Virus record (IMG/VR): IMGVR_UViG_2541047747_000001
Origin: a virus
Lineage: Duplodnaviria > Heunggongvirae > Uroviricota > Caudoviricetes
DNA length: 46,204 bases
Reading direction: 5' to 3' (one strand)
Made by a program: the position numbers and the translations under genes. Under the pieces are notes generated by a model, which saw only the letters and a program-made list of their open reading frames with translations, made no database searches and was not told where the DNA came from. Positions 5,446 through 29,068 of the stretch are shown here, in pieces (within the stretch, counting starts at the first letter, position 1; every line of letters begins with the position of its first letter).

Positions 5446-5455
5446 TGGAGTGGAT

Positions 5456-8400
5456 ATGGCAGCAGTAAAAATCTCAGGTGTGCTGAAAGATGGTGCGGGA
5501 AAACCAATACAGAACTGCACTATTCAACTGAAGGCAAAGCGTAACAGCACCACGGTACTGGTGAACACGGTGGCTTCTGAAAATCCGGATGAAGCCGGAC
5601 GTTACAGCATGGATGTTGAGTATGGCCAGTACAGCGTCACCCTGCTGGTTGAAGGTTTTCCGCCTTCACATGCCGGGACCATTACCGTCTATGAAGGTTC
5701 CAGACCAGGTACGCTGAATGATTTTCTCGGTGCCATGACGGAAGATGATGTCATGCCGGAGGCACTGCGCCGCTTTGAGCAGATGGTGGAAGAGGTGTCA
5801 CGTAACGCCTCCGCGGTTGCACAGAATACGGCAGCCGCGAAAAAATCAGCCAGCGATGCCAGTGCATCAGCCAGCGAGGCGGCAACTCATGCAACCGATG
5901 CTGCAGCCTCAGCACGTGCCGCCAGCACGTCAGCCGGACAGGCCGCGTCGTCGGCTCAGTCAGCGTCTTCCAGCGCAGGAACGGCATCGACAAAGGCCCG
6001 TGAAGCAGCAAAAAGTGCTGCTGCTGCAGAGTCATCAAAAAGCGCGGCAGCTACCAGCGCCAGTGCCGCGAAAACGTCAGAAACGAATGCCGCAGCATCA
6101 CAAAAATCGGCAGCCACTTCTGCATCCACAGCGACCACGAAAGCGTCAGAAGCTGCCACCTCGGCACGGGGTGCGGCGGCCTCAAAAGAGGCAGCGAAAT
6201 CTTCAGAAACGAATGCATCATCAAGTGCCAGTAGTGCAGCTTCCTCGGCAACGGCGGCAGGAAATTCCGCGAAGGCGGCAAAAACGTCCGAGACGAACGC
6301 CAGGTCTTCTGAAACAGCAGCGGGACAGAGCGCCTCAGCTGCGGCAGGTTCAAAAACAGCGGCTGCATTATCTGCCAGTGCCGCGTCAACAAGTGCCGGG
6401 CAGGCCTCAGCCAGTGCCACCGCCGCCGGAAAATCGGCAGAAAGCGCCGCATCATCCGCTTCAACAGCCACAACGAAGGCTGGCAAAGCCACTGAGCAAG
6501 CCACTGCAGCAGCGAGGTCTGCTTCTGCAGCAAAAACCTCTGAAACAAATGCAAAGACTTCAGCAGACAATGCTGCTTCCTCTAAGGCGGCAGCCGCATC
6601 GTCAGCCAGTTCAGCGGCGTCATCGGCATCATCTGCGTCTGCTTCAAAAGATGAGGCGACCAGACAAGCGTCAGCAGCGAAAGGTAGTGCCACGACAGCA
6701 ACAACGAAAGCATCAGAGGCGGCAGGCAGTGCGACGGCGGCATCTCAGAGCAAAGTTGCTGCTGAATCCGCGGCAACGCGTGCCGAAACAGCGGCAAAAC
6801 GGGCAGAGGATATTGCATCCGCCGTGGGGCTTGAGGATGCGAGCACGACGAAAAAGGGGATAGTACAGCTCAGCAGTGCAACAAACAGCACCAGTGAAAA
6901 GCTGGCGGCAACGCCAAAGGCAGTTAAAACTGTTAAAGATAGTTCAGTTCAAAAAACTGGCGACACAATGGGAGGGCAGTTAAAAATCAGCACGATAAAT
7001 GCTCTTCGAATATTCAACCAAGCCTTTGGCCTTATTTTTAGGCGTTCCGAAGATTATCTTCATCTTATTCCGACTAATGAAGGGGAGGGGGAAAATGGAG
7101 ACATCGGTTCATTAAGACCATTCTCTATAAACTTAAGATCAGGGTTGGTGTCCATCGGTAATGGACTAAAAGTTGGTGGTAGTGTTACTGGTAATTTGAC
7201 CGGAAACGCAGATACTGCGACCAAGATCAAGACAGCACGTAAGATTGGGGGCGTGGCATTTGATGGATCGGCAGATATCAACTTGCCTGGAGTCAACGCT
7301 ACCGGTAATCAAAACACTACAGGTAATGCTGCGACCGCCACGAAACTTCAGGCAGCCAGAACGATTAACGGTGTGTCATTTGATGGTAGTGCAAATATCA
7401 CATTGACCCCTTCAAATATTGGGGCATTGGCATTAACTGGAGGGACTCTTTCAGGTGGTTTAACTGCTGCTGGTGAGGTTATTTCAAGGTCAGCAAATGG
7501 TCTGCGTATTGCCTATGGCAACTATGGATTCTTTATCCGAAATGATGGATCAAACACATATTTTATGTTGACAGATTCGGGTAACAGTCTTGGTACGCAC
7601 AATAGCTTAAGGCCGTTTATAATTAGTAACCATACTGGCAATGTTACAATTGCAACTAAATTAAACGCGAGTGGTGGTATCACTGGATCTTTATCGGGTA
7701 ATGCAAGCACAGCAACCAAATTGCAAACTGCAAGGACAATTAACGGCGTAAAATTTGACGGCTCGGCAAATATTGAAGCGTTTCCGCCAGGTGTTCCGCT
7801 GCCGTGGCCATCAGATACACCACCTGCAGGTTATGCGATCATGCAGGGGCAGACGTTTGATAAGGCAGCATATCCGAAACTGGCTATTGCCTATCCTTCA
7901 GGTGTTATTCCAGATATGCGCGGCTGGACAATCAAGGGCAAACCCGCCAGTGGCCGGGCCGTATTGTCTCAGGAACAGGACGGCATAAAATCGCACACCC
8001 ACAGCGCCAGCGCATCCAGTACGGATTTGGGGACGAAAACCACATCGTCGTTTGATTACGGCACTAAATCCACGAATAACACCGGGGCGCATACGCACAG
8101 TCTGAGTGGCTCTACGGGGTCTGCCGGTGTTCATACTCATGGTAATGGTATTCGTTGGCCAGGAGGCGGCGGTTCTGCGTTAGCATTTTATGATGGCGGT
8201 GGGTTCACTTATGTCCAGAATTCACAGTATCAAGTAAGCCCGGAGACTTCTTCCTATAGATCGTATTATCAACGTATTCAGACACAGTCAGCAGGTGCTC
8301 ATACCCACTCGCTGTCTGGTACTGCAGCAAGTTCTGGCGCACATGCACATACTGTAGGTATTGGTGCGCATACGCACTCCGTTGCGATTGGTTCACATGG

Positions 8401-8485
8401 ACACACCATCACCGTTAACGCTGCGGGTAACGCGGAAAACACCGTCAAAAACATCGCATTTAACTATATTGTGAGGCTTGCATAA
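5456..8485 (+). CDS. stf: side tail fibre protein Stf
   Basis: N-terminus [27 protein letters not shown] and C-terminus [18 protein letters not shown] match lambda Stf as recalled; long Ala/Ser-rich KTSETNA repeats; GGAG RBS before the ATG at 5456. Confidence 0.9.
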
Positions 8486-9069
8486 TGGCATTCAGAATGA
8501 GTGAACAAGCACGGACCATAAAAATTTATAATCTGCTGGCCGGAACTAATGAATTTATTGGTGAAGGTGACGCATATATTCCGCCTCATACAGGTCTGCC
8601 AGCAAACAGTACCGATATTGCACCACCAGATATTCCTGCTGGCTTTGTGGCTGTTTTCAACAGTGATGAGGCATCGTGGCATCTCGTTGAAGACCATCGG
8701 GGTAAAACGGTTTATGACGTAGCGTCAGGGGACGAGTTATTTATTTCTGAACTCGGTCCGTTACCGGAAAATGTTACCTGGTTATCGCCGGAAGGGGAGT
8801 TTCAGAAGTGGAACGGCACAGCCTGGGTGAAGGATACGGAAGCAGAAAAACTGTTCCGGATCCGGGAGGCGGAAGAAACAAAAAACAGCCTGATGCAGGT
8901 AGCCAGCGAGCATATTGCGCCGCTTCAGGATGCTGCAGATCTGGAAATTGCAACAGAGGAAGAAATCTCGTTGCTGGAAGCATGGAAAAAGTATCGGGTA
9001 TTGCTGAACCGTGTTGATACGTCAACTGCACCTGATATTGAGTGGCCTACGAACCCTGTCAGGGAGTAA
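8485..9069 (+). CDS. tfa: tail fibre assembly protein Tfa
   Basis: 194 aa, [42 protein letters not shown] nearly identical to lambda Tfa as recalled; start overlaps stf stop (TAATG). Confidence 0.9.
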
Positions 9070-9083
9070 TCATTGGGATTATG

Positions 9084-9116
9084 CCGCAGCACGTCTTAAG
9101 CAAGAACGTGCTGCGG
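9084..9116. terminator. perfect 11-bp inverted repeat between convergent tfa and dinI-like gene (possible bidirectional or factor-dependent terminator)
   Basis: CCGCAGCACGT-cttaagcaaga-ACGTGCTGCGG; no flanking U-tract on either strand. Confidence 0.4.
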
Positions 9117-9184
9117 TTGGATGGTGAACTTTCGATAGTGCGAGTATTGAATGATTTCCAGCCGTTACCGATTTTACGTGTTAA

Positions 9185-9433
9185 TTAGTGAACAAACCAC
9201 TCGTCAGCAGACTCCCAGGTATCTTTCAGAGTTTCCTGAACAAAAGTTTTAGCTGAATCTTTATCGGCGGTGCGCGTAACAGAAAGGCCATCGTTGCTGG
9301 TAGCTTTTACGATCACCTCTACATCGTCATAACGTTTACTGATGCGTCGGGTTAATTCTTCCTTTAACGCATCCACAGCACCGGTTGGCATTTTAGTCAT
9401 TTTTTCTTTGGCTATGCAGATTTCAATACGCAT
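9185..9433 (-). CDS. dinI: DinI-like DNA damage-inducible protein
   Basis: 82 aa; MRIEI...AVDAL..EL.RRI...[10 protein letters not shown] pattern typical of the DinI family; two LexA boxes directly upstream. Confidence 0.8.
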
Positions 9434-9448
9434 AAAAGTCCCTCTACA

Positions 9449-9492
9449 CTGTGTTTGTATACAGTATCATTTTTAACTGTATGGATAAACAG
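9449..9492 (-). promoter_or_regulatory. two LexA (SOS) boxes overlapping the dinI-like promoter
   Basis: CTGTgtttgtatACAG (9449-9464) and CTGTatggataaACAG (9477-9492) fit CTGT-N8-ACAG; minus-strand -35 TTGACA (rc of 9495-9500) with 17-bp spacer to TAAAAA. Confidence 0.75.
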
Positions 9493-9509
9493 TGTCAAGG
9501 GTGAGGGAA

Positions 9510-9790
9510 AGTGATTTTTTGGGGCATGCATGGGGCAAAAATATTTGTTGTGGGGCATTTTGGGGCATGATTGGGACACTTTGTTACATATGAACTTTGC
9601 CGATTTTTATATGACATGGAAATACAACGCTTTGATTCTTCTAAATAAAAAATATGCTCTTGGGCGTTCTTTAGTGATTTTTAAAAATTCCGTATCACGC
9701 AGTTAACATGACGGGTATTAAGGATTAACTTACTGATTTTAATAAGCCTCTGATGTCACTTTGGTGACTATGGGGCATCATTGGGACATA
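9510..9790. other. putative attP region with integrase arm-type repeats
   Basis: Four TGGGGCA repeats at 9520-9567 and an 18-bp direct repeat TGGGGCAT(G/C)ATTGGGACA at 9561-9578 and 9771-9788, next to the int 3' end; core crossover site not identified. Confidence 0.45.
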
Positions 9791-11038
9791 ATCTGTCAGC
9801 TTCTGATTCAGCATTGCGATCTGTTCTGCATTGCTGTCAGTCATCCATGCTCCGTATACATTGAATACCATCTGGGCACTTGCATGGCCCATCTGGCTGG
9901 CAATGAAGCTTGGGTTTGCTCCGGCAGATAATGACCAGCACGCATAAGTGTGTCGTGACTGGTATGCCTTTCGATGCCTGATCCCTGCACGCTTAATGGC
10001 TGTTTCCCATGAGTCACCTACAGAATCGACTTTGTAGACAAAACCTACCTGTTCGCTTTTTCTAACCACTTGAGGGTTAAACACGAAAGTACATTCATGG
10101 TTCACTGAACGTCCATATTCACGTAGTTGCACCTTGATGTTGTACTGCTTACCCAGTCTTGTCATTTCAGCCTGATTTTTCAGGACACTGATAGCGGGCT
10201 GGATAAGGTGCACAACCCTGTTTGTGCTTGCTTCAGTTTTCGGTAGAGTGAACTCACCAAGTTTCGTATAATTGCGCCTGATGGTAATTGTTCCTGCCTT
10301 CAGATCGATATCTTCCCAGGCCAGGGAGACCAGTTCACCGTGACGCATTCCTGTGTACACAGCCAATGACCACAGGTTTTTCGTCTGCTGATGTCGGCAA
10401 GCATCTATCAGGCGAATAAATTCGTCACGAGTTAGCGGATCTGGCTCTGCCCTGGCTCTTTTAAGAGGCTTAATTCCCTGGAAGGGATTTGCTTCTAAGT
10501 AACCGTGATCTGCAGCAAACTGAAACATTCCAGCGATTGTCGTCATGTAATAATTTACAGTAACGACGCTCCGTCCTTTTGCTGCTGCTTTGTTTTTCGT
10601 TGAATTCTGATACCCGGTCAGCAAATCTTTCCTGATATACAGCAATTCCTCTTTGGTTACCGATGACACCAGTCTACTGCCTCCAATTTTCGGAACCATC
10701 GTTCTTGCAACGGATTCATAGCGATTGAATGCATTTGCAGAGATTTCCATTCGTTTCAGATCCAGCCACTTTTCTTCAAGTTCCTTCACCGTAATTTCTT
10801 TTTTACTTACCCCAAAAGCCTGAAGGTTGGGGGAGTCAGGGAACTGTGCAGCATAATCAAAGCTTCCTGTGCGGATGGCAAAACATACTGATGTCCGCAG
10901 TTCCCCGGCGATCTTCCTGTTCTTGGCAGTGTCAGGGACACCAAGATTTTCCCTGACACGTTTACCTTTAAAATTAAACCAGATGCGTAATGTGCCGCCG
11001 TGGTTTTCGACGCCTGTTGGATATTTGACTTTATCCAT
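9725..11038 (-). CDS. int: tyrosine-type site-specific integrase with N-terminal arm-binding domain
   Basis: 437 aa; C-terminal catalytic region with R..HxxR..Y context (SRHTYACWSL, GHASAQMVFNVY); position next to xis and attP. Confidence 0.85.
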   Translation of the reverse strand: MDKVKYPTGVENHGGTLRIWFNFKGKRVRENLGVPDTAKNRKIAGELRTSVCFAIRTGSFDYAAQFPDSPNLQAFGVSKKEITVKELEEKWLDLKRMEISANAFNRYESVARTMVPKIGGSRLVSSVTKEELLYIRKDLLTGYQNSTKNKAAAKGRSVVTVNYYMTTIAGMFQFAADHGYLEANPFQGIKPLKRARAEPDPLTRDEFIRLIDACRHQQTKNLWSLAVYTGMRHGELVSLAWEDIDLKAGTITIRRNYTKLGEFTLPKTEASTNRVVHLIQPAISVLKNQAEMTRLGKQYNIKVQLREYGRSVNHECTFVFNPQVVRKSEQVGFVYKVDSVGDSWETAIKRAGIRHRKAYQSRHTYACWSLSAGANPSFIASQMGHASAQMVFNVYGAWMTDSNAEQIAMLNQKLTDYVPMMPHSHQSDIRGLLKSVS

Positions 11039-11093
11039 CGATACCTCCAGACGCCCAAGAGCGATACGAGCTTACATATTTCATGATATTAAA

Positions 11094-11330
11094 TCACCTG
11101 GGTTGTTTGTTTTTCATTGAGGCGACCCAGGCATCTATTGCTTTTCTGTTATACATACATTCACTGGAAGGCTTTGGATTACCGTCTGGTGATACGTGAA
11201 TATACTCTCTTCCAACCATCCAGCATTCTTTCCGGGCCCGAAGAATTGTGCCTGGTTTGAGCCCGGTAATTGCGATAAGAACGCTTTCACAAACCCATTC
11301 ATTGGGAGCCAGTTGAATCACATTGCCCAT
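11094..11330 (-). CDS. xis: excisionase-like small DNA-binding protein
   Basis: 78-aa ORF immediately upstream of int on the same strand; call is mainly positional. Confidence 0.55.
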   Translation of the reverse strand: MGNVIQLAPNEWVCESVLIAITGLKPGTILRARKECWMVGREYIHVSPDGNPKPSSECMYNRKAIDAWVASMKNKQPR

Positions 11331-11488
11331 GTATTACCTCACACAACACTCAGCCCACGGCAGTGGCACCACACTTCAAACATTCGCTTCACAACTTCAC
11401 GACAGTAGAAGCCGTCAACATCTCGCGTCAGGTCATAGCGATTGCCGTAACGCTGGTGGACCCATCGTTCAAATGCTTTATTCATTCT

Positions 11489-11767
11489 TTACTTCCTTTT
11501 TATGGCTCGTAATTTTTTCAGGTGCTTTTCCTGCTCAGTGTCCGCGAGAATTTTGCGGTACTCCTGGTGGTCAATATGTTCGAACAGGCAGTTTAACTCA
11601 CCAATGCGTACCCGCCCGGATCGTCCGTCCATCCGTCGAAAGAACACTGAGTGCTCAGTGATGCGAGTAATCACCACGGGGTATCCGGCTCTGTCCGTGT
11701 ATATCTGACCGCGTTGAATCAAAGCGAACATGTGGTTATCCCCATCGACAAATCGAGAACACAACAA
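11489..11767 (-). CDS. hypothetical protein (small early-left gene)
   Basis: 92-aa ORF co-oriented with neighbours; real start may be an internal Met. Confidence 0.4.
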   Translation of the reverse strand: MLCSRFVDGDNHMFALIQRGQIYTDRAGYPVVITRITEHSVFFRRMDGRSGRVRIGELNCLFEHIDHQEYRKILADTEQEKHLKKLRAIKRK

Positions 11768-16444: not shown

Positions 16445-17101
16445 TCAGAAAATATCCCACCTGGCATCAACCACAACACCTACTATTTCGCAATCATTGT
16501 CCATTTCTATGATTGGATATTGTGGATTAAGGGGCTTTAGAAACGCCTTTCCCATGTCAGAAATATATTTTTTGAATGTTGCTTCATTGGTAGATTTTTT
16601 TCTGGCGATGACGTAACACCCTGAAAAAACTTCTTTATCTGGGTTGACAAGGATCGACATTCCTTCAGGAAATGTTATTCCTACGGGCGAAGTCATTGAG
16701 TCTCCGTGCACTTCCAGCCAGAACCCCCTCTCACCAGCGTATTTTACAGAATGCCTCCAATTATCCTGATCATACATGTTGTAGTCATCACCAGAAGTTG
16801 CGAATAATCCTGCCTGAACCCAGTTAATTACAGGGTAAGAGTGTGCTGTGTCTCTCTGTGGGCAGCTCTTAACATTATTTTCCCAATGCTTATCTTTTTC
16901 ATCTCCGTTCTGAAGCCACTGCGGTGAACACCGCAGTGCAGCTGCAACTTTAAAAAGGGTGTCACCGTTGAAACTTTTTGTAAGGCCTTGCTCGGCTTTA
17001 CTGATTGCAACTCTGGTGATCCCAGCTTTTTTAGCCAACGCATCTTGTGTTAACCCAGCTTTTTGCCGTGCGTTGATGAGACGTTCACCTAAAGACTTCA
17101 T
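16445..17101 (-). CDS. cI: cI-type prophage repressor (HTH plus LexA-like S24 autopeptidase domain)
   Basis: N-terminal HTH MKSLGERLINARQKAGLTQDALAKKAGIT and C-terminal S24 domain with GDSM serine motif; GGAG RBS before the ATG at 17101; the ORF-track extension to 17176 is rejected. Confidence 0.85.
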   Translation of the reverse strand: MKSLGERLINARQKAGLTQDALAKKAGITRVAISKAEQGLTKSFNGDTLFKVAAALRCSPQWLQNGDEKDKHWENNVKSCPQRDTAHSYPVINWVQAGLFATSGDDYNMYDQDNWRHSVKYAGERGFWLEVHGDSMTSPVGITFPEGMSILVNPDKEVFSGCYVIARKKSTNEATFKKYISDMGKAFLKPLNPQYPIIEMDNDCEIVGVVVDARWDIF

Positions 17102-17123
17102 TTTTCTTCTCCTCTCATGGCTG

Positions 17124-17195
17124 TTGATACTAAAGTAACAGAATTTCTTGATACTTTGGATTCCTGTGGTTAACATCGTTGGATAACAAAGTATC
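17124..17195. promoter_or_regulatory. right operator-like repeat cluster (OR analogue) with candidate rightward promoter
   Basis: TTGATACTAAAGTAAC (17124-17139), TTGATACTTTGG (17148-17159), GGATAACAAAGTATC (17181-17195); -35 TTGATA, 17-bp spacer, -10 TAACAT at 17171-17176. Confidence 0.5.
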
Positions 17196-17786: not shown

Positions 17787-17899
17787 GTCGAACCTCCTTT
17801 GGTTCTTTTGTTTATAGGGATCAAAAGGATAACTGAAGGAAGGTTCGGCACCAATAAGTACGAATGTGCGGAATCTTAAAAGAATTTATCCGTAAGGAG

Positions 17900-18613
17900 A
17901 TGGCAGTGAACACCGTAATTTTTAACGGCAAAGCATCCATGACCAGCCTTGAAATCGCAGAGTTGGTGGGCAGCCAACACAAAGATGTTAAGCGCAGCAT
18001 TGAAAGGCTCATGGATAAGGGGATTATTCGAAGTGCGCCAATGGCGAATTTCGAAATAATCAACAACTTAGGATTAAAACGAAATGTAGGTGCTTACATC
18101 TTCGAAGGCGAACAAGGTAAGCGCGACAGCATCATTGTCGTCGCACAGCTCTGTCCTGAATTCACAGCTCGCCTGGTAGATCGCTGGCGCGAACTGGAAG
18201 AACAGATCCGTAAGCCAATGAGCGAAATCGAAATGGTTGCCGCGATGGCTCTTGAAGCCGTTCGCCAACAGAAACGGATCACTCAGGTGGAAGAAAAAGT
18301 CAGCCACGTTGCTGAAACAGTCGAGCAAATTAAAAAGGGCACTATTCGTGAGGGCTATGCCGGATATCGCCAACTGAAAGCAAAAACCGGTTTGTCAGAT
18401 GATAAATGCCGCAATCTGGTGAACGCCTATCAAATTCCTACAGACACACATGAGTTCATGACGCCGGACGGATTGTTGTCACGTCGCGCAATTGTTGCTG
18501 TGGAACCGTTTATGGCTGCTTTTTATCGGGTTATGGAGGAAGCAGAACCGCGAGGGACTCGCTGGTATCACCCGAAAATGGGGTTATTTCAGGTTATTGG
18601 TTGGCAGCGATGA
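17900..18613 (+). CDS. Rha-family phage regulatory protein (antirepressor-like)
   Basis: Start at MAVNTVIF after an AAGGAG RBS; N-terminal Rha-like domain (FNGKASMTSLEIAELVGSQHKDVKRSIERL). Confidence 0.7.
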   Translation: MAVNTVIFNGKASMTSLEIAELVGSQHKDVKRSIERLMDKGIIRSAPMANFEIINNLGLKRNVGAYIFEGEQGKRDSIIVVAQLCPEFTARLVDRWRELEEQIRKPMSEIEMVAAMALEAVRQQKRITQVEEKVSHVAETVEQIKKGTIREGYAGYRQLKAKTGLSDDKCRNLVNAYQIPTDTHEFMTPDGLLSRRAIVAVEPFMAAFYRVMEEAEPRGTRWYHPKMGLFQVIGWQR

Positions 18614-18635
18614 AAAAAGCCGGGAGTAACCCGGC
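18613..18635 (-). terminator. rho-independent terminator oriented for minus-strand transcription
   Basis: On the minus strand: GCCGGG-ttact-CCCGGC followed by TTTTTT; no U-tract in the plus orientation. Confidence 0.55.
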
Positions 18636-18720
18636 TCACTCAACATCAATAACGGGGAGCTGTTTCGCATAAAACGGCTCCGAAACATCCAAGAACAGTT
18701 CTAAAGATATCAGCAGCTAT

Positions 18721-19383
18721 ATGATCATTTCAAGACCAAATATTGATTCTGCAATTTCGGGACGTTACACTGTCTCCGCACCTTATAAAGCGGGTGCCGG
18801 GGGTCGCAGCCCGGAATTGCATACGGCGATATACGACGCGCCAGCGTCTTTTTTATCGTCCGCGCTCACGCACGCCAGAATTATGGTGGGCTGGGCAGGG
18901 GAGCCGAAAGGCTCGCCGGTTTCCGTATGCGCCGGTACTGCGAACCCTGTTCAGTCTGCCACCAGTGAGTTTCGCAGCTCCGGTGGTGGAAGTTATCCAT
19001 TGCATACGGAGGCTGCCATCATGGCTACAGTCCCAACTTCCCCATTCCTCAAAATTGAAGTTGTCAACGGCAAGGCCGTTATTTTCTCCCTGCATGTTGC
19101 CTGCCACTTTAAGCGCATGCACCAGAACATCGTCGACAAAATCGAGTATCTGAACTGCTCACGCGAGTTTTTTACCCGCAATTTCATACCGGGTACTTAT
19201 CACATCTACGGTGACTCCCTGCGTGGTTATTACATCACCCTTGATGGTCTGATGATGCTTCAGCTTGGGTTAAGTCTGCGCACAATGCGGTACTACGAGA
19301 GCTGTATTGAAGCATTCCATGAGGCTGAAACCGTCCAGGGTCACTCCGCGTTCCGTCGTAATCAACGGGAGGTGCACCTATGA
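18721..19383 (+). CDS. Rha-family protein with about 100-aa N-terminal extension (or structured leader plus Rha gene starting near 19021)
   Basis: Rha-like core FLKIEVVNGKAVIFSLHVACHFKRMHQNIVDKIEYL; N-terminal region contains a conserved 61-nt block and an in-frame terminator-like hairpin (18835-18854). Confidence 0.6.
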   Translation: MIISRPNIDSAISGRYTVSAPYKAGAGGRSPELHTAIYDAPASFLSSALTHARIMVGWAGEPKGSPVSVCAGTANPVQSATSEFRSSGGGSYPLHTEAAIMATVPTSPFLKIEVVNGKAVIFSLHVACHFKRMHQNIVDKIEYLNCSREFFTRNFIPGTYHIYGDSLRGYYITLDGLMMLQLGLSLRTMRYYESCIEAFHEAETVQGHSAFRRNQREVHL

Positions 19384-20231
19384 TCCGCCACCAGCATATT
19401 GATTCTGCAATTTCGGGACGTTACACTGTCTCTGCACCTTATAAAGCGGGTGCCGGGCGTGGAAACCCGAAATTCAATATAGAGCACAACCGCGCTCATG
19501 CGGTTTTTTCGTGTCATGAGCATCGTTACGCCCAAATTATGGTGGGGCGTGCAGGGCCAACTTCGGTTGGGCCGGGTTCTATGTTGACCGGTATTTCCAC
19601 CCCTGTACGTCTCACCACCTATATGGTCGTGGAAAGCCTTGGTGGTGAGTTCATTGAATTCAACATAGGGGCTGTCACCATGACTACTCTCCCAACCCAA
19701 TCTCACCCTGAAATCACGATTATCAATGGTCGCGTTGTCACCACATCTCTTGCAGTAGCTAATTACTTTACTAAACGGCATGAGCGGGTTTTAGATAGAA
19801 TTAGAAACCTCGAATGTTCCGCTGAATTTACTGAACACAATTTTGTGTTAAGTGAATACACCGACGCATCAGGCCGCAAACTACCTTGCTATCAAATCAC
19901 CCGCGATGGCTTCGCGTTCCTTGCCATGGGCTTCACTGGTAAACGTGCTGCCCGGTTCAAAGAGGCATACATCAACGCCTTTAACCTGATGGAGAAGAGT
20001 TTATCAGGTGCCGATACGTCTGATATGTCAGCTGTCGCACGAAACGCCAGAGGCGTATACCTGCATTTGCGTGAAATCCATCAAATCTGGACAAGCCAGC
20101 TTTATCCAATGCTTAAGGCCGTTGAATCTCCGCTGGCTAGCAAACTGTACGACCGTGTTGGTGATGCTGTTTTTGGCGCTGCACTTGTTGATTCCAGGCT
20201 GAATGGTTCTGACAAGGAGGTTCGCCCATGA
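19380..20231 (+). CDS. Rha-family protein, paralogue of 18721..19383, same N-terminal extension architecture
   Basis: Rha-like core ITIINGRVVTTSLAVANYFTKRHERVLDRIRNL...QITRDGFAFLAMGFTGKRAARFKEAYINAFN; ATG overlaps the upstream stop. Confidence 0.65.
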   Translation: MIRHQHIDSAISGRYTVSAPYKAGAGRGNPKFNIEHNRAHAVFSCHEHRYAQIMVGRAGPTSVGPGSMLTGISTPVRLTTYMVVESLGGEFIEFNIGAVTMTTLPTQSHPEITIINGRVVTTSLAVANYFTKRHERVLDRIRNLECSAEFTEHNFVLSEYTDASGRKLPCYQITRDGFAFLAMGFTGKRAARFKEAYINAFNLMEKSLSGADTSDMSAVARNARGVYLHLREIHQIWTSQLYPMLKAVESPLASKLYDRVGDAVFGAALVDSRLNGSDKEVRP

Positions 20232-24558: not shown

Positions 24559-25599
24559 GTGAACATTCAGGCAGTAGACATTTTTTGTGGTGCGGGGGGC
24601 TTAACTTTTGGGCTAAAAAAAGCCGGGATTGAGGTTTCTCATGGTATTGATATTGATGAATCCTGCCGTTTTGCTATTGAGAGCAATAATCCTTTAACGC
24701 AGTTCATTAATCAGTCAGTTACAGAACTGCAATCCTGCGATGTGTCTGCTATGTTCAAGGAAGGAAATATTAGATTGCTTGCTGGATGTGCTCCTTGCCA
24801 ACCGTTTTCCAAGTATCGTAATCCAAATAGCCGTAAAGACGATACAAAGTGGCGTTTGTTATATGAGTTTCAAAGGCTTGTAAGTGATGTAATGCCAGAG
24901 CTTGTGACGATGGAGAATGTTCCTCAACTTAGAAACCATAAGGTTTTTGAAGGGTTTGTTAGTGCATTAAAGACTCTTGGATATCATTTGTGGTACGACG
25001 TTGTAAGATGTTCTGAGTATGGCTTACCTCAAAATAGACGTAGATTAATTCTAATTGGTTCCCAATTGGGGCCGATCAGCCTTGATCAAAAAAAAGTTAG
25101 CCGTAAAGTTACTGTTAAGGATGCTATTGGTAGGTTGCCAAAAGTAGGGGCAGGTGAGAAGCTGGAAAGCGATCCCTTGCATCGTTCGCCTAAATTGATG
25201 GATATCAATCTTAAACGAATCATGCATTCTTTACCTGGTGGTACGTGGGATGACTGGCCTGAAGAAATTAGAGCAGACTGTCATAAAAAGAATTCAGGTG
25301 CTACCTATAAAAGCGTTTATGGACGGATGGTTTGGGACGATACTAGCCCTACGATAACTACCCAGTGTTATGGATATGGAAATGGACGATTTGGCCATCC
25401 TGAGCAAAATCGCGCCATAACTTTGCGTGAAGCTGCGATTTTGCAATCCTTTCCAATGGATTATAAATTCCTTGACAAGGAGACGCCTTTTTCATTCCAA
25501 AAATTGGGGACAATGATTGGAAATGCTGTTCCCCCTATAATTGGTCAGATAATAGGGGAAACATTTATCAGACATGTTGAGGGGATAAATACCCGTTAG
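24559..25599 (+). CDS. DNA (cytosine-5)-methyltransferase
   Basis: Motif I FCGAGG, motif IV PCQPFS, ENV and QNRRR motifs; GTG start with GGAG RBS. Confidence 0.85.
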   Translation: MNIQAVDIFCGAGGLTFGLKKAGIEVSHGIDIDESCRFAIESNNPLTQFINQSVTELQSCDVSAMFKEGNIRLLAGCAPCQPFSKYRNPNSRKDDTKWRLLYEFQRLVSDVMPELVTMENVPQLRNHKVFEGFVSALKTLGYHLWYDVVRCSEYGLPQNRRRLILIGSQLGPISLDQKKVSRKVTVKDAIGRLPKVGAGEKLESDPLHRSPKLMDINLKRIMHSLPGGTWDDWPEEIRADCHKKNSGATYKSVYGRMVWDDTSPTITTQCYGYGNGRFGHPEQNRAITLREAAILQSFPMDYKFLDKETPFSFQKLGTMIGNAVPPIIGQIIGETFIRHVEGINTR

Positions 25600-26257
25600 A
25601 GGTAATATAATTTTCTGTTGAGTTGATTAATAAACGCAAATATAGATCAATTCTTTCTGACCTCGATTTGACTTCTTCTAAAGGGTCTATTTGACCTTTT
25701 TTAGAAAAGCTGGTACTTCCATGTGCCAGCTCATTTCTGATATCTTTAAGTAAATCTAAGTCAACACCATTTCTACACTCTGGTGAGTTTGCAACAGTTA
25801 TTCCGTAAGCTTGTGTTATTTTGTGCAATACAGACTTGCAAACATTACCATTGAATTCTTTACGTATGTTTAATGAGGCTGAAATGATCCTTTTAGATAT
25901 ATCGGAACCAATTTTTTGATAAAGAGATTTTCCCGATTCATTATCTGAAATGATACGGTGCAAGATATTTACTTGGAATTTCTCCCTGAGTGATGCGTAA
26001 TTTACTTCATTATCTTGCAAATGGTCATAAATTGACTCAATGCATCCTCTGGCAGTGTTTTCAACCTGATTGTACAGCATCATGTGCACGGATGATTTTA
26101 AAATGTTAACCCTAAGGGTATTTGATTCTATTTCATCTTTATGCGTTTGCTGATCTAACTGCTGAGTCTGAGCCTCTAAAGATGACGCAAGAGAAAGCAA
26201 TTCCATAATATCTCTTGCTCTTTCTTCGTATTCATCTCTTAAATCAATCAAACTCAT
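25568..26257 (-). CDS. HEPN-domain protein (putative RNase effector), second gene of DUF262-HEPN cassette
   Basis: 229 aa; C-terminal R-x4-H motif RNELAHG; start 2 bp after the DUF262 gene stop; 3' end overlaps the convergent C5-methyltransferase by 32 bp. Confidence 0.65.
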   Translation of the reverse strand: MSLIDLRDEYEERARDIMELLSLASSLEAQTQQLDQQTHKDEIESNTLRVNILKSSVHMMLYNQVENTARGCIESIYDHLQDNEVNYASLREKFQVNILHRIISDNESGKSLYQKIGSDISKRIISASLNIRKEFNGNVCKSVLHKITQAYGITVANSPECRNGVDLDLLKDIRNELAHGSTSFSKKGQIDPLEEVKSRSERIDLYLRLLINSTENYITSNGYLSPQHV

Positions 26258-26259
26258 AG

Positions 26260-27417
26260 TTACATTCCTAATAATTTATCTTTGACATAAAATATTCTGT
26301 TTTTGAGTTGGCTGGTGTTGTTGGCACTATCAGCAGTAACTATGGTTTCAAATTCCTCCCCAAACAGCCAGTCTCCTACAGGAATAACCGGAGCCTGTAG
26401 ATGTGGATTGGCTTTTAAGGCAAGAGCAGTTCCCACTGCTATGGCTTCGTATCTAGCACGGGGGGTGGTTTTGCTTGTTGGTGTCTTTTTAAACCCCATA
26501 GGGAAATGAGCATCTACAAAAGCAAGCATGCTTTCAAAATCATGTTTAAATTTGTCTACATCTTGTTGTGTGACCCTTTCGGCCTGAACATTAAGATAAT
26601 TGTCAATAAAAGGAGCGACATAACCCTTATAATTTTCTAAATCATTTAAGTATGCAAAAAATCTCAAAACTAACTCACGATGATCGCCATTCGAACGTTT
26701 CCGATCTGATAATGGAGCTAGACTAGCGAAAAGTGGATTTGTTGAGCAAGGAGTCACAACATCCCTATAGAAAATTGAAGTGGCCGCATCTGAACCATGT
26801 CTAACCTCCATCGCTTCCAGTCTCTTAACACCTGAATTTATTCTTTCGAATAAATCTCTTCTATGCTGCTCCTCAACATCACCTTTCAATTCAATAAATC
26901 TTAGTGATGCCCTTAAAAATCGCCTCTGGCGGCTAGCCAAAAGATCTGAAAATTTGAAGCCCTCTAAACTTTTGAGTTCTTTTAAGTCTTTCAATTCAAA
27001 CTGATTGTTCCAAAAGTAGTAAATTGAGCGAATCCTTTGTGAACCGTCAATAATTTCTACACGACCATCCAACTCAGGATCTTCATTAAATACGTCGGAG
27101 ATGTAGAGGTACGGGATTGGAAAATCTAATAATATACTTTCGATGAATCGAGAGGCTGTTTTGATATCCCATTTGTAATCGCGTTGATAATCAGGAATAA
27201 AAAGTTCGTTTTTGTCAGTTTCAAGATTATTGCCATACTTTTGTACAATTAATTCAACGGTCCATTCACGTACGTTGTATCCAATATTTCTCTGAGCAAG
27301 CCTAATCTCGTTGTCGGCAGAAGTGACCAAGGCTGCAATTTCAGCTTTTTTTCTATTTTTCGCGTTTTCATCTTGAATCTGAGCAAGCTCTTCTTTGAGT
27401 TCTTTGAGTGTGGTCAT
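26260..27417 (-). CDS. DUF262 (ParB-like nuclease/NTPase fold) domain protein
   Basis: 385 aa; signature blocks FIPDYQRDYKWD and IIDGSQR; AAGGAA RBS before the start. Confidence 0.7.
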   Translation of the reverse strand: MTTLKELKEELAQIQDENAKNRKKAEIAALVTSADNEIRLAQRNIGYNVREWTVELIVQKYGNNLETDKNELFIPDYQRDYKWDIKTASRFIESILLDFPIPYLYISDVFNEDPELDGRVEIIDGSQRIRSIYYFWNNQFELKDLKELKSLEGFKFSDLLASRQRRFLRASLRFIELKGDVEEQHRRDLFERINSGVKRLEAMEVRHGSDAATSIFYRDVVTPCSTNPLFASLAPLSDRKRSNGDHRELVLRFFAYLNDLENYKGYVAPFIDNYLNVQAERVTQQDVDKFKHDFESMLAFVDAHFPMGFKKTPTSKTTPRARYEAIAVGTALALKANPHLQAPVIPVGDWLFGEEFETIVTADSANNTSQLKNRIFYVKDKLLGM

Positions 27418-28018: not shown

Positions 28019-29068
28019 ATGCTTAATACTGTAAAAATATCCAGTTGTGAGTTAATCAACGCCGACTGCCTGGAATTTATCCGGTCGTTACCCGAAAATT
28101 CTGTTGACCTGATAGTCACGGACCCGCCGTACTTTAAAGTGAAGCCTGAGGGCTGGGATAACCAGTGGAAGGGCGACGATGATTACCTGAAGTGGCTGGA
28201 CCAGTGTCTGGCGCAGTTCTGGCGGGTGCTGAAACCTGCCGGAAGTCTTTACCTGTTCTGTGGTCATCGCCTGGCATCTGATATCGAAATCATGATGCGT
28301 GAACGCTTCAGTGTGCTGAACCATATTATCTGGGCGAAGCCGTCCGGACGCTGGAACGGATGCAACAAGGAAAGCCTGCGGGCGTATTTCCCCGCCACAG
28401 AGCGCATTCTGTTCGCGGAACATTATCAGGGGCCGTATCGTCCGAAAGATGCCGGGTATGCGGCGAAGGGCAGTGCACTGAAACAGCATGTGATGGCCCC
28501 GCTGATTTCTTACTTTCGTGATGCGCGCGCGGCCCTGGGGATAACGGCAAAACAGATTGCAGATGTCACAGGAAAGAAAAACATGGTGTCGCACTGGTTC
28601 AGTGCCAGTCAGTGGCAGCTACCGAACGAAAGCGATTATCTGAAATTACAGTCGCTGTTTGCCCGGGTGGCAGAAGAGAAACATCAGCGCGGTGAACTGG
28701 AAAAGCCCCACCACCAGCTGGTGGATACGTATACGTCACTGAACCGGCAGTATGTGGAGCTGCAGAGTGAATATAAGCATCTGCGGCGGTATTTTGGTGT
28801 GACGGCGCAGGTGCCGTACACGGATGTATGGACACATAAACCGGTGCAGTTCTATCCCGGGAAACATCCGTGCGAAAAACCGGCAGAAATGCTGCAGCAG
28901 ATAATCAGCGCAAGCAGTCGTCCGGGTGACCTGGTTGCAGATTTTTTTATGGGCTCAGGTTCAACGGTAAAAGCGGCACTGGCGCTCGGGCGTCGTGCGA
29001 TTGGCGTTGAACTGGAGACCGGACGTTTTGAGCAGACAGTCAGGGAAGTTCAGGATTTAATCGTTTGA
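28019..29068 (+). CDS. DNA N6-adenine methyltransferase (DPPY motif)
   Basis: 349 aa; motif IV LIVTDPPY and SAM-binding region FFMGSGST. Confidence 0.8.
   Translation: MLNTVKISSCELINADCLEFIRSLPENSVDLIVTDPPYFKVKPEGWDNQWKGDDDYLKWLDQCLAQFWRVLKPAGSLYLFCGHRLASDIEIMMRERFSVLNHIIWAKPSGRWNGCNKESLRAYFPATERILFAEHYQGPYRPKDAGYAAKGSALKQHVMAPLISYFRDARAALGITAKQIADVTGKKNMVSHWFSASQWQLPNESDYLKLQSLFARVAEEKHQRGELEKPHHQLVDTYTSLNRQYVELQSEYKHLRRYFGVTAQVPYTDVWTHKPVQFYPGKHPCEKPAEMLQQIISASSRPGDLVADFFMGSGSTVKAALALGRRAIGVELETGRFEQTVREVQDLIV

Follow-up and report, generated by a model that had tools for sequence, protein, structure and literature searches.

A candidate mobile dinI-like cassette of a lambdoid phage with two predicted LexA boxes on one promoter

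A small gene for a DinI-like protein is located on the minus strand of a lambdoid phage genome, and two sequences resembling LexA boxes lie in front of it. This locus raises the question whether the gene is an SOS-controlled unit of its own and what such a unit would do to RecA and to the induction of the prophage. The window, which here means the whole analysed stretch of DNA with a length of 46,204 nt, belongs to a lambdoid, phiP27/mEp460-like E. coli phage that is related to phiP27 and PhiR49_2. The gene and its flanks are positioned at the junction between tail fibre and attachment site, with the tail-fibre assembly gene on one side and attP/int on the other. The following features define this neighbourhood and the immunity repressor:

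5450..8485, plus strand: side tail fibre gene
8485..9069, plus strand: tfa, the tail-fibre assembly gene, with a Caudo_TAP domain
9084..9116, minus strand: 33-nt hairpin CCGCAGCACGT-TCTTGCTTAAG-ACGTGCTGCGG (fold z -2.7) in the gap between the convergent dinI-like and tfa genes
9185..9433, minus strand: dinI-like coding sequence, 82 amino acids plus stop, Pfam DinI
9725..11038, minus strand: int
11094..11330, minus strand: xis
16445..17176, minus strand: CI-like immunity repressor with HTH and Peptidase_S24 domains

The analysis described below suggests that the region 9084-9499 is very probably a self-contained, horizontally mobile dinI unit on the minus strand, which would be repressed by LexA, opened in the SOS response and able to alter the output of RecA*.

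The identity of the product was addressed by profile and structure-based comparisons. The 82-aa protein matches Pfam DinI (PF06183) over profile positions 1-63 of 63 with 70.9 bits (cutoff 24.2, E 1e-19), and E. coli DinI (PDB 1GHH and 7YWA, the latter being the RecA-DinI cryo-EM entry) could be aligned over the full length (E 3.7e-13, residues 1-81 against 1-79) with an identity of 49%. This full-length homology bears out the earlier note, which had called the gene DinI-like. The determinants of DinI for RecA binding are a pocket formed by L13, L21, W71, W77 and F78 and an acidic patch consisting of E24, E69 and D76 (PMC9926225). Five of these eight residues (L21, E24, W71, W77 and F78) are identical in the window protein and the remaining ones show conservative exchanges, with L13 replaced by M (M15), E69 by D and D76 by E. 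The protein belongs to a subfamily of 81-82 aa with two insertions of 2 residues each that neither the chromosomal DinI nor the 77-aa proteins of the Gifsy type possess. Judged by these alignments, the product is a DinI paralogue and a predicted member of the RecA-filament-binding family. As a separate observation, the dinI-like genes of the BP-4795 type (locus L094 at 248-493, and L104) have decayed LexA boxes and encode proteins with a W to R exchange in the ETWES motif, at the equivalent of the pocket residue W71; the same exchange occurs in SEN34 (L102), where the box is intact.

The promoter is located directly upstream of the dinI-like gene and is read in the direction opposite to that of the tail genes. 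Perfect matches to CTGTNNNNNNNNACAG (CTGT-N8-ACAG) occur exactly twice in the whole window, at 9449-9464 and at 9477-9492, as the earlier note had stated, with a centre-to-centre distance of 28 nt. Shuffled versions of the window contained on average 0.49 matches; at least two matches anywhere were found in 8 of 100 shuffles, never 28 nt apart. Read on the minus strand from 9498 to 9433, the sequence is TTGACA(9498-9493)-CTGTTTATCCATACAG-TTAAAAATGATA-CTGTATACAAACACAG-TGTAGAGGGACTTTT-ATG(9433). The boxes were scored with a heterology-index-like (HI-like) matrix built from about 24 E. coli LexA sites, with the dinI site as the only one checked against sequence (K-12). The elements are:

9493..9498, minus strand: -35 hexamer TTGACA, consensus, from the sequence and the promoter scan
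9477..9492: predicted LexA box 1, CTGTTTATCCATACAG; 20-mer CACTGTTTATCCATACAGTT at 9475-9494, HI-like score 5.70
9469..9475, minus strand: -10 region TAAAAAT, read as AAAAAT by the promoter scan and as TAAAAA in the earlier note
9449..9464: predicted LexA box 2, CTGTATACAAACACAG; 20-mer TACTGTATACAAACACAGTG at 9447-9466, HI-like score 6.21
9440..9444, minus strand: Shine-Dalgarno-like GAGGG, 6 nt upstream of the ATG, read directly from the sequence

The scan identified TTGACA, an 18-nt spacer and AAAAAT with 10 of 12 matches as the top site in the region 8400-11500. The -10 element matches at four of six positions and is not preceded by a TG extension. The consensus -35 that had been proposed before was therefore found again, and the 17-bp spacer proposed along with it is possible, leading to TAAAAA without the conserved final T, whereas the scan prefers 18 nt; both spacings are possible and the difference is a minor point. 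A strong promoter is plausible. Box 1 occupies the entire spacer between -35 and -10. Box 2 spans the predicted transcription start at about 9460-9462 together with the early 5' UTR and leaves 15 nt to the ATG, so that the overlap of both boxes with a minus-strand promoter upstream of the gene could be confirmed. A promoter-like site on the plus strand (9443-9470, 9/12 matches) was set aside, since no plausible gene follows downstream.

Both boxes conform to the gamma-proteobacterial CTG-N10-CAG type of palindrome that resembles TACTGTATATATATACAGTA. With the same matrix the known E. coli boxes yielded 4.8 (recA), 5.2 (sulA), 5.1 (dinI), 6.8 (lexA box 1) and 7.3 (uvrA), and on this scale the two boxes of the window lie among genuine E. 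coli SOS boxes. Of all 20-mers in the window they take the second and third place, the next unrelated site having a score of 11.1, and the best score in 30 shuffles was 6.85.

The top HI-like score in the window, 4.32, belongs to a third LexA-like site, TACTGTAAAAATATCCAGTT at 28027-28046, which overlaps codons 3-9 of an N6/N4 DNA methylase gene (28019..29068, plus strand). The site is identical in phiP27 and in a Stx2 phage, but the overall identity of these is already about 90-93%. No sigma-70-like promoter was found near this site, and two terminator-like hairpins are situated directly upstream of it. The methylase gene may be SOS-controlled. Further to the left, a cargo island (24559-27417) comprises a C5 cytosine DNA methylase gene (24559..25599, plus strand) and two genes on the minus strand, of which 25568..26257 encodes a HEPN MAE_28990-like protein and 26260..27417 a GmrSD_N/DUF262 protein; the latter two may constitute a phage-borne defence pair. 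Directly rightward of the immunity region, three successive genes (17864-20231, plus strand) encode Rha and/or Ash domains.

Conservation of the operators was analysed in a promoter set of 94 loci with at least 100 nt of upstream sequence, which were reduced to 51 distinct upstream sequences (IMG/VR, phage records and genomes). A scan of genome contigs with the single protein delivered 4 close loci; the cross-species diversity was drawn from the phage records and IMG/VR. The tail-adjacent type with proteins of 81-86 aa (type-A) is represented by 43 distinct promoters, of which 36 contain two CTG-N10-CAG boxes, 6 one box and 1 none; most of the compared promoters are close relatives with limited statistical power, and the weight lies on the few diverged lineages. 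In the layout that is kept, TTGACA directly adjoins box 1, after which come an A/T-rich -10 and box 2. This order is retained in lineages with about 60-64% protein identity (P-EibC; L172-L176), in which the box interiors (e.g. CTGTATGTATAACCAG and CTGTATATCCAACCAG), the -10 and the 5' UTR are all different.

The spacing of the boxes varies among the homologues from 24 to 29 bp, mostly 28, and this variation argues for independent operators and not for a fixed cooperative pair. Box 1 reads CTGG...ACAG in ASU11 and Stx1 phages and is lost in the BP-4795 lineage; in locus L104 both boxes are lost. A single box is found in the Klebsiella P18-100 type and in 7/7 promoters of the 77-aa Gifsy type. 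Since the chromosomal dinI of E. coli has one box, located over the -10 and the start site, box 2 would be the counterpart of the ancestral dinI operator and box 1 an addition.

Comparison at the DNA level revealed discrete ends of the unit. A megablast search against 50,697 phage records matched 138 records, and in nearly all of them the similarity stops at query positions 399-403, corresponding to window 9498-9502 at the -35. Using blastn against the fetched loci, the upstream break was located at 9498-9501, whereas the downstream one falls either on 9083-9085 or on the stop codon (9181-9190). The hairpin, which is separated from the coding sequence by 68 nt, accompanies the cassette: its stem consists of 11 bp and 3 further pairs, its last base is 9084, and in many loci the homology ends exactly at 9083-9085. 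Neither strand contains a U-tract at 9084-9116 and the terminator scan makes no call there. The hairpin is a probable terminator or 3'-end stabiliser, termination being uncertain because of the missing U-tract. The neighbours differ from phage to phage. In mEp460 an Rci-type integrase gene overlaps the promoter, which is already annotated in this record; in other loci, including those of Stx phages, genes for the effectors NleG or NleC adjoin the cassette, and eaaC, other tail fibre genes and other integrases were found as well. Because the DNA similarity breaks at about 9499 and at 9084, we regard 9084-9499 as a mobile cassette of promoter, gene and hairpin, that is, as a predicted moron. Its own promoter, the discrete boundaries and the different neighbours across phages are in line with the term moron, which had been used for the locus before. 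A role of the boxes as int or attP elements was rejected, because the break in homology lies immediately ahead of the -35 and the boxes accompany dinI beside unrelated integrases or none.

The cassette is widespread. The 316-nt segment containing gene and promoter is present in 1,790 of 5,426 complete E. coli genomes (33%) in up to seven places per genome, where the copies are annotated as 'DinI-like family protein', and the cassette occurs in about 130 phage records. A solo copy of the hairpin (window 9084-9123) is located at 2860-2899 of L086, a locus of the E. coli ECMA0423 chromosome, about 800 nt from a dinI-like copy; the 33-nt hairpin may itself be an element that recurs at junctions of lambdoid prophages. 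The 'stem_loop' annotated in P-EibC is a different hairpin from that of the cassette.

We also considered the 3' region as a source of RNA. In Klebsiella the 3'-UTR-derived sRNA DinR acts on ftsZ (PMC10907235). A similar sRNA is not supported for the window: the duplex energy with the translation-initiation region of E. coli ftsZ was no better than that of shuffled sequences, which were at least as good in 93% of cases for the 104-nt 3' region and in 37% for the unstructured 60 nt. A search of the 3' region on the dinI strand against Rfam resulted in no above-threshold match, and the hairpin is without the U-tail that is usual for Hfq sRNAs. On the other strand, Rfam IS009 (RF02111) matches at 8828-9026 (plus strand) with 220 bits (gathering score 117); this match lies wholly within tfa, and what the family describes is probably a piece of a prophage tfa gene and not an independent sRNA.

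On the int side of the dinI-like gene a gap of 225 nt contains four TGCCCCA repeats. These are located within 48 nt on the minus strand (9520-9567), between the dinI promoter and the stop codon of int, and a fifth copy is present at 9771-9777 (minus strand) in the 3' end of int. Int probably binds to these repeats as arm-type sites of attP, and the dinI-like promoter would adjoin this probable attP. Comparable repeats lie upstream of dinI in ASU11, Stx1_499, BP-4795 and P-EibC.

The arrangement of the promoter suggests the following mode of action. A sigma-70 promoter with a consensus -35 would be under the control of two LexA operators that act independently, the first located in the spacer and the second at the start site. 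In the lysogen, the LexA protein of the host, and not the repressor of the phage, would bind to both operators and occlude RNA polymerase, independently of CI. After DNA damage the RecA*-driven cleavage of LexA would open the promoter. Two good operators on one promoter would probably keep expression tight and restrict it to a relatively late stage or to a strong SOS response. [quoted passage not shown] Most likely this would happen by competition with slow substrates such as the CI protein of the phage itself and UmuD, with a higher or delayed threshold for prophage induction and SOS mutagenesis as the predicted consequence. Alternatively, RecA* might be prolonged and the gene might act as a commitment device. 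We favour the function as a brake over that of a commitment device, especially where several copies add up.

The repressor of the phage fits to an influence of RecA. The CI-like protein contains an Ala-Gly site (VQAGLF) as well as GDSM and FKK motifs, from which we infer RecA*-stimulated self-cleavage of the lambda CI/LexA type. LexA, UmuD and lambda-type CI proteins use a common RecA groove. According to cryo-EM data, DinI and lambda CI occupy the same groove elements of the RecA filament, and both stabilising and inhibitory effects of DinI on RecA have been described (PMC9926225; Yasuda 1998/2001 and Lusetti 2004, cited second-hand). Because the repressor belongs to the self-cleaving, RecA-dependent type, it is plausible that the DinI-like product alters prophage induction; the sign of this effect cannot be deduced from the sequence. 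Non-polar deletions of dinI in the Gifsy prophages caused no significant change of induction (PMC3121763).

These deletions also bear on the possibility that the gene is a case of lysogenic conversion for the benefit of the host, a reading that we hold to be somewhat unlikely. The additional DinI would then limit UmuD processing, SOS mutagenesis and hyper-recombination, or aid survival under quinolones, with no meaningful effect on induction. The missing induction phenotype in Gifsy agrees with this, as do the moron architecture, the cargo genes that accompany it in Stx phages (NleC and NleG, for instance) and the presence of the cassette in 33% of the complete E. coli genomes; in addition, one of the loci that a genome-association study connects with emerging quinolone resistance is a prophage DinI-like gene (bioRxiv 10.1101/2023.06.20.545734). 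However, the host already owns a LexA-controlled dinI, and a benefit for the host would be compatible with a changed RecA* output as the main explanation and does not exclude it.

The same LexA-controlled cassette could also act with the opposite sign: near-stoichiometric DinI would stabilise RecA filaments, prolong RecA* and promote CI cleavage and induction in a positive feedback. DinI lengthens and stabilises RecA filaments in cryo-EM and EM analyses and is said to assist filament formation early in SOS (PMC9926225), the RecA-contact residues are retained in the phage protein, and a phage would profit from reliable induction under severe damage, for which a tight and late double operator would be a suitable commitment device. 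Against this, DinI located on the groove elements of CI is expected to compete at high dose, up to 7 copies per genome would provide high doses and favour inhibition, and the Gifsy dinI deletions left induction unchanged. We therefore judge this reading to be unlikely and retain the competition of the product with CI and UmuD as the preferred one.

It is very unlikely that the boxes are chance matches or non-functional relics in front of a gene that is constitutive, silent or transcribed by read-through only. The loss of one or both boxes in some lineages (BP-4795, L104) would be in line with decay, but two perfect palindromes coincide precisely with the spacer between -35 and -10 and with the start site, their HI-like scores equal those of real SOS boxes, the layout recurs in 36 of the 43 distinct promoters across diverged lineages, and homologous phage dinI promoters have been demonstrated to be LexA-dependent (PMC3121763, PMC8072944).

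A DinI-like protein that is an antirepressor or part of one, as in Gifsy operons or in Tum of phage 186, whose C-terminal half is DinI-like, so that the boxes would control induction directly, is extremely improbable: small ORFs do follow just downstream of dinI in the Gifsy-type loci examined, but in the window 68 nt separate the coding sequence from the hairpin, beyond which lies the convergent tfa, with no ORF on the dinI strand before hairpin and tfa other than 8925..9092 (55 aa), antisense within tfa, the protein has the length of DinI with no extra domain, the location is outside the nin region, and a self-cleaving S24 repressor needs no antirepressor. Gifsy, Fels-2, PSP3 and 186 combine a LexA-controlled dinI gene with a physically linked antirepressor (PMC3121763); a Gifsy-like antirepressor operon was rejected here owing to the missing second gene and the self-cleaving repressor.

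If the cassette changes the RecA* output, a gene that a third of the complete E. coli genomes and many Stx phages carry, in up to seven copies, would help to set how readily prophages are induced after antibiotics or other DNA damage. This would have a bearing on Stx release and SOS mutagenesis. In a more far-reaching and quite doubtful version of the idea, the tail-adjacent DinI paralogues of polylysogens would form a shared, dose-additive brake on RecA* that fires together late in a strong SOS response, sets a common induction threshold for CI prophages including Stx phages and influences toxin release; gain or loss of the cassette or decay of its operators (BP-4795) would then correspond to cheating. 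A limitation of induction by phage dinI was the subject of earlier speculation in a paper on Stx phages (PMC8456039). In the published work we found no phenotype yet for LexA-controlled phage dinI genes.

LexA control of phage dinI is already known from phiKO2, from the Gifsy phages, where it is experimental, and from OS31. Our literature search found no paper on the double operator or on LexA control of the tail-adjacent type of E. coli. The double operator and the exact boundaries of the cassette are only modestly new details, and the stand-alone layout is a modest variation. The cassette contains a very common and already annotated gene and offers a clean, testable example of a double operator, not a new concept.

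[quoted passage not shown] As in the window, the gene follows directly after the tail genes in opposite orientation, converges with them on a shared hairpin or terminator and is preceded by a TTGACA -35, a LexA site over the start site, a Shine-Dalgarno sequence and the ATG. The record annotates the LexA site, the -10/-35 signals and a 'putative bidirectional' terminator, and a paper on Serratia phages states, with reference to Casjens 2004, that this dinI is LexA-regulated (PMC7556043). Unlike the window, phiKO2 has one annotated box and a half-site only in the spacer, shares the promoter divergently with a umuD-like gene, possesses a canonical U-tract terminator, encodes a more distant protein and is itself a linear plasmid prophage. 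The Serratia phage vB_SspS_OS31 also contains a tail-adjacent, oppositely oriented DinI-like gene (p60), which has a near-consensus LexA box 14 bp upstream (PMC7556043); in contrast to the window, the box is single and the gene is translationally coupled to a second small ORF.

The prophages Gifsy-1, -2 and -3 of Salmonella encode DinI paralogues with a LexA box overlapping the promoter. These homologues head LexA-controlled operons that include antirepressors (PMC3121763) and are induced 4.6-23-fold by nalidixic acid (PMC8072944). They differ from the window in belonging to the 77-aa subfamily (42-44% identity), which lacks the two 2-residue insertions, in a single box 19 nt from the ATG and in the location in the nin region. 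The Gifsy dinI is the first gene of a dinI-antirepressor-irsA operon, in which the antirepressor as second gene drives induction, whereas the cassette of the window is monocistronic; likewise, the repressor of the Gifsy type is non-cleavable and depends on the antirepressor, whereas the window encodes an S24 repressor with AG, GDSM and FKK motifs.

The chromosomal dinI of E. coli (b1061) belongs to the same family and has a LexA box at the position of -10 and start site; its 5' UTR and Shine-Dalgarno sequence are similar to those of some phage variants. Its promoter has a single box and consists of TTGTCA and TATAAA at a distance of 17 nt; the gene ends with a canonical terminator. Compared with it, the gene of the window is distinguished by the consensus -35, the extra operator in the spacer, the 2-aa insertions and its mobility. 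The position of box 2 matches that of the single box in both chromosomal dinI and phiKO2 dinI, and LexA ChIP data for the chromosomal dinI of Klebsiella provide a precedent in a homologue. Two good LexA boxes on one promoter, as in the window, are a feature of the lexA, recN and colicin gene promoters, with a spacing of about 21 bp in lexA and overlapping boxes in colicin promoters as against 28 bp in the window and 24-29 bp in its homologues; such pairs are associated with tight repression and with delayed or high-threshold induction.
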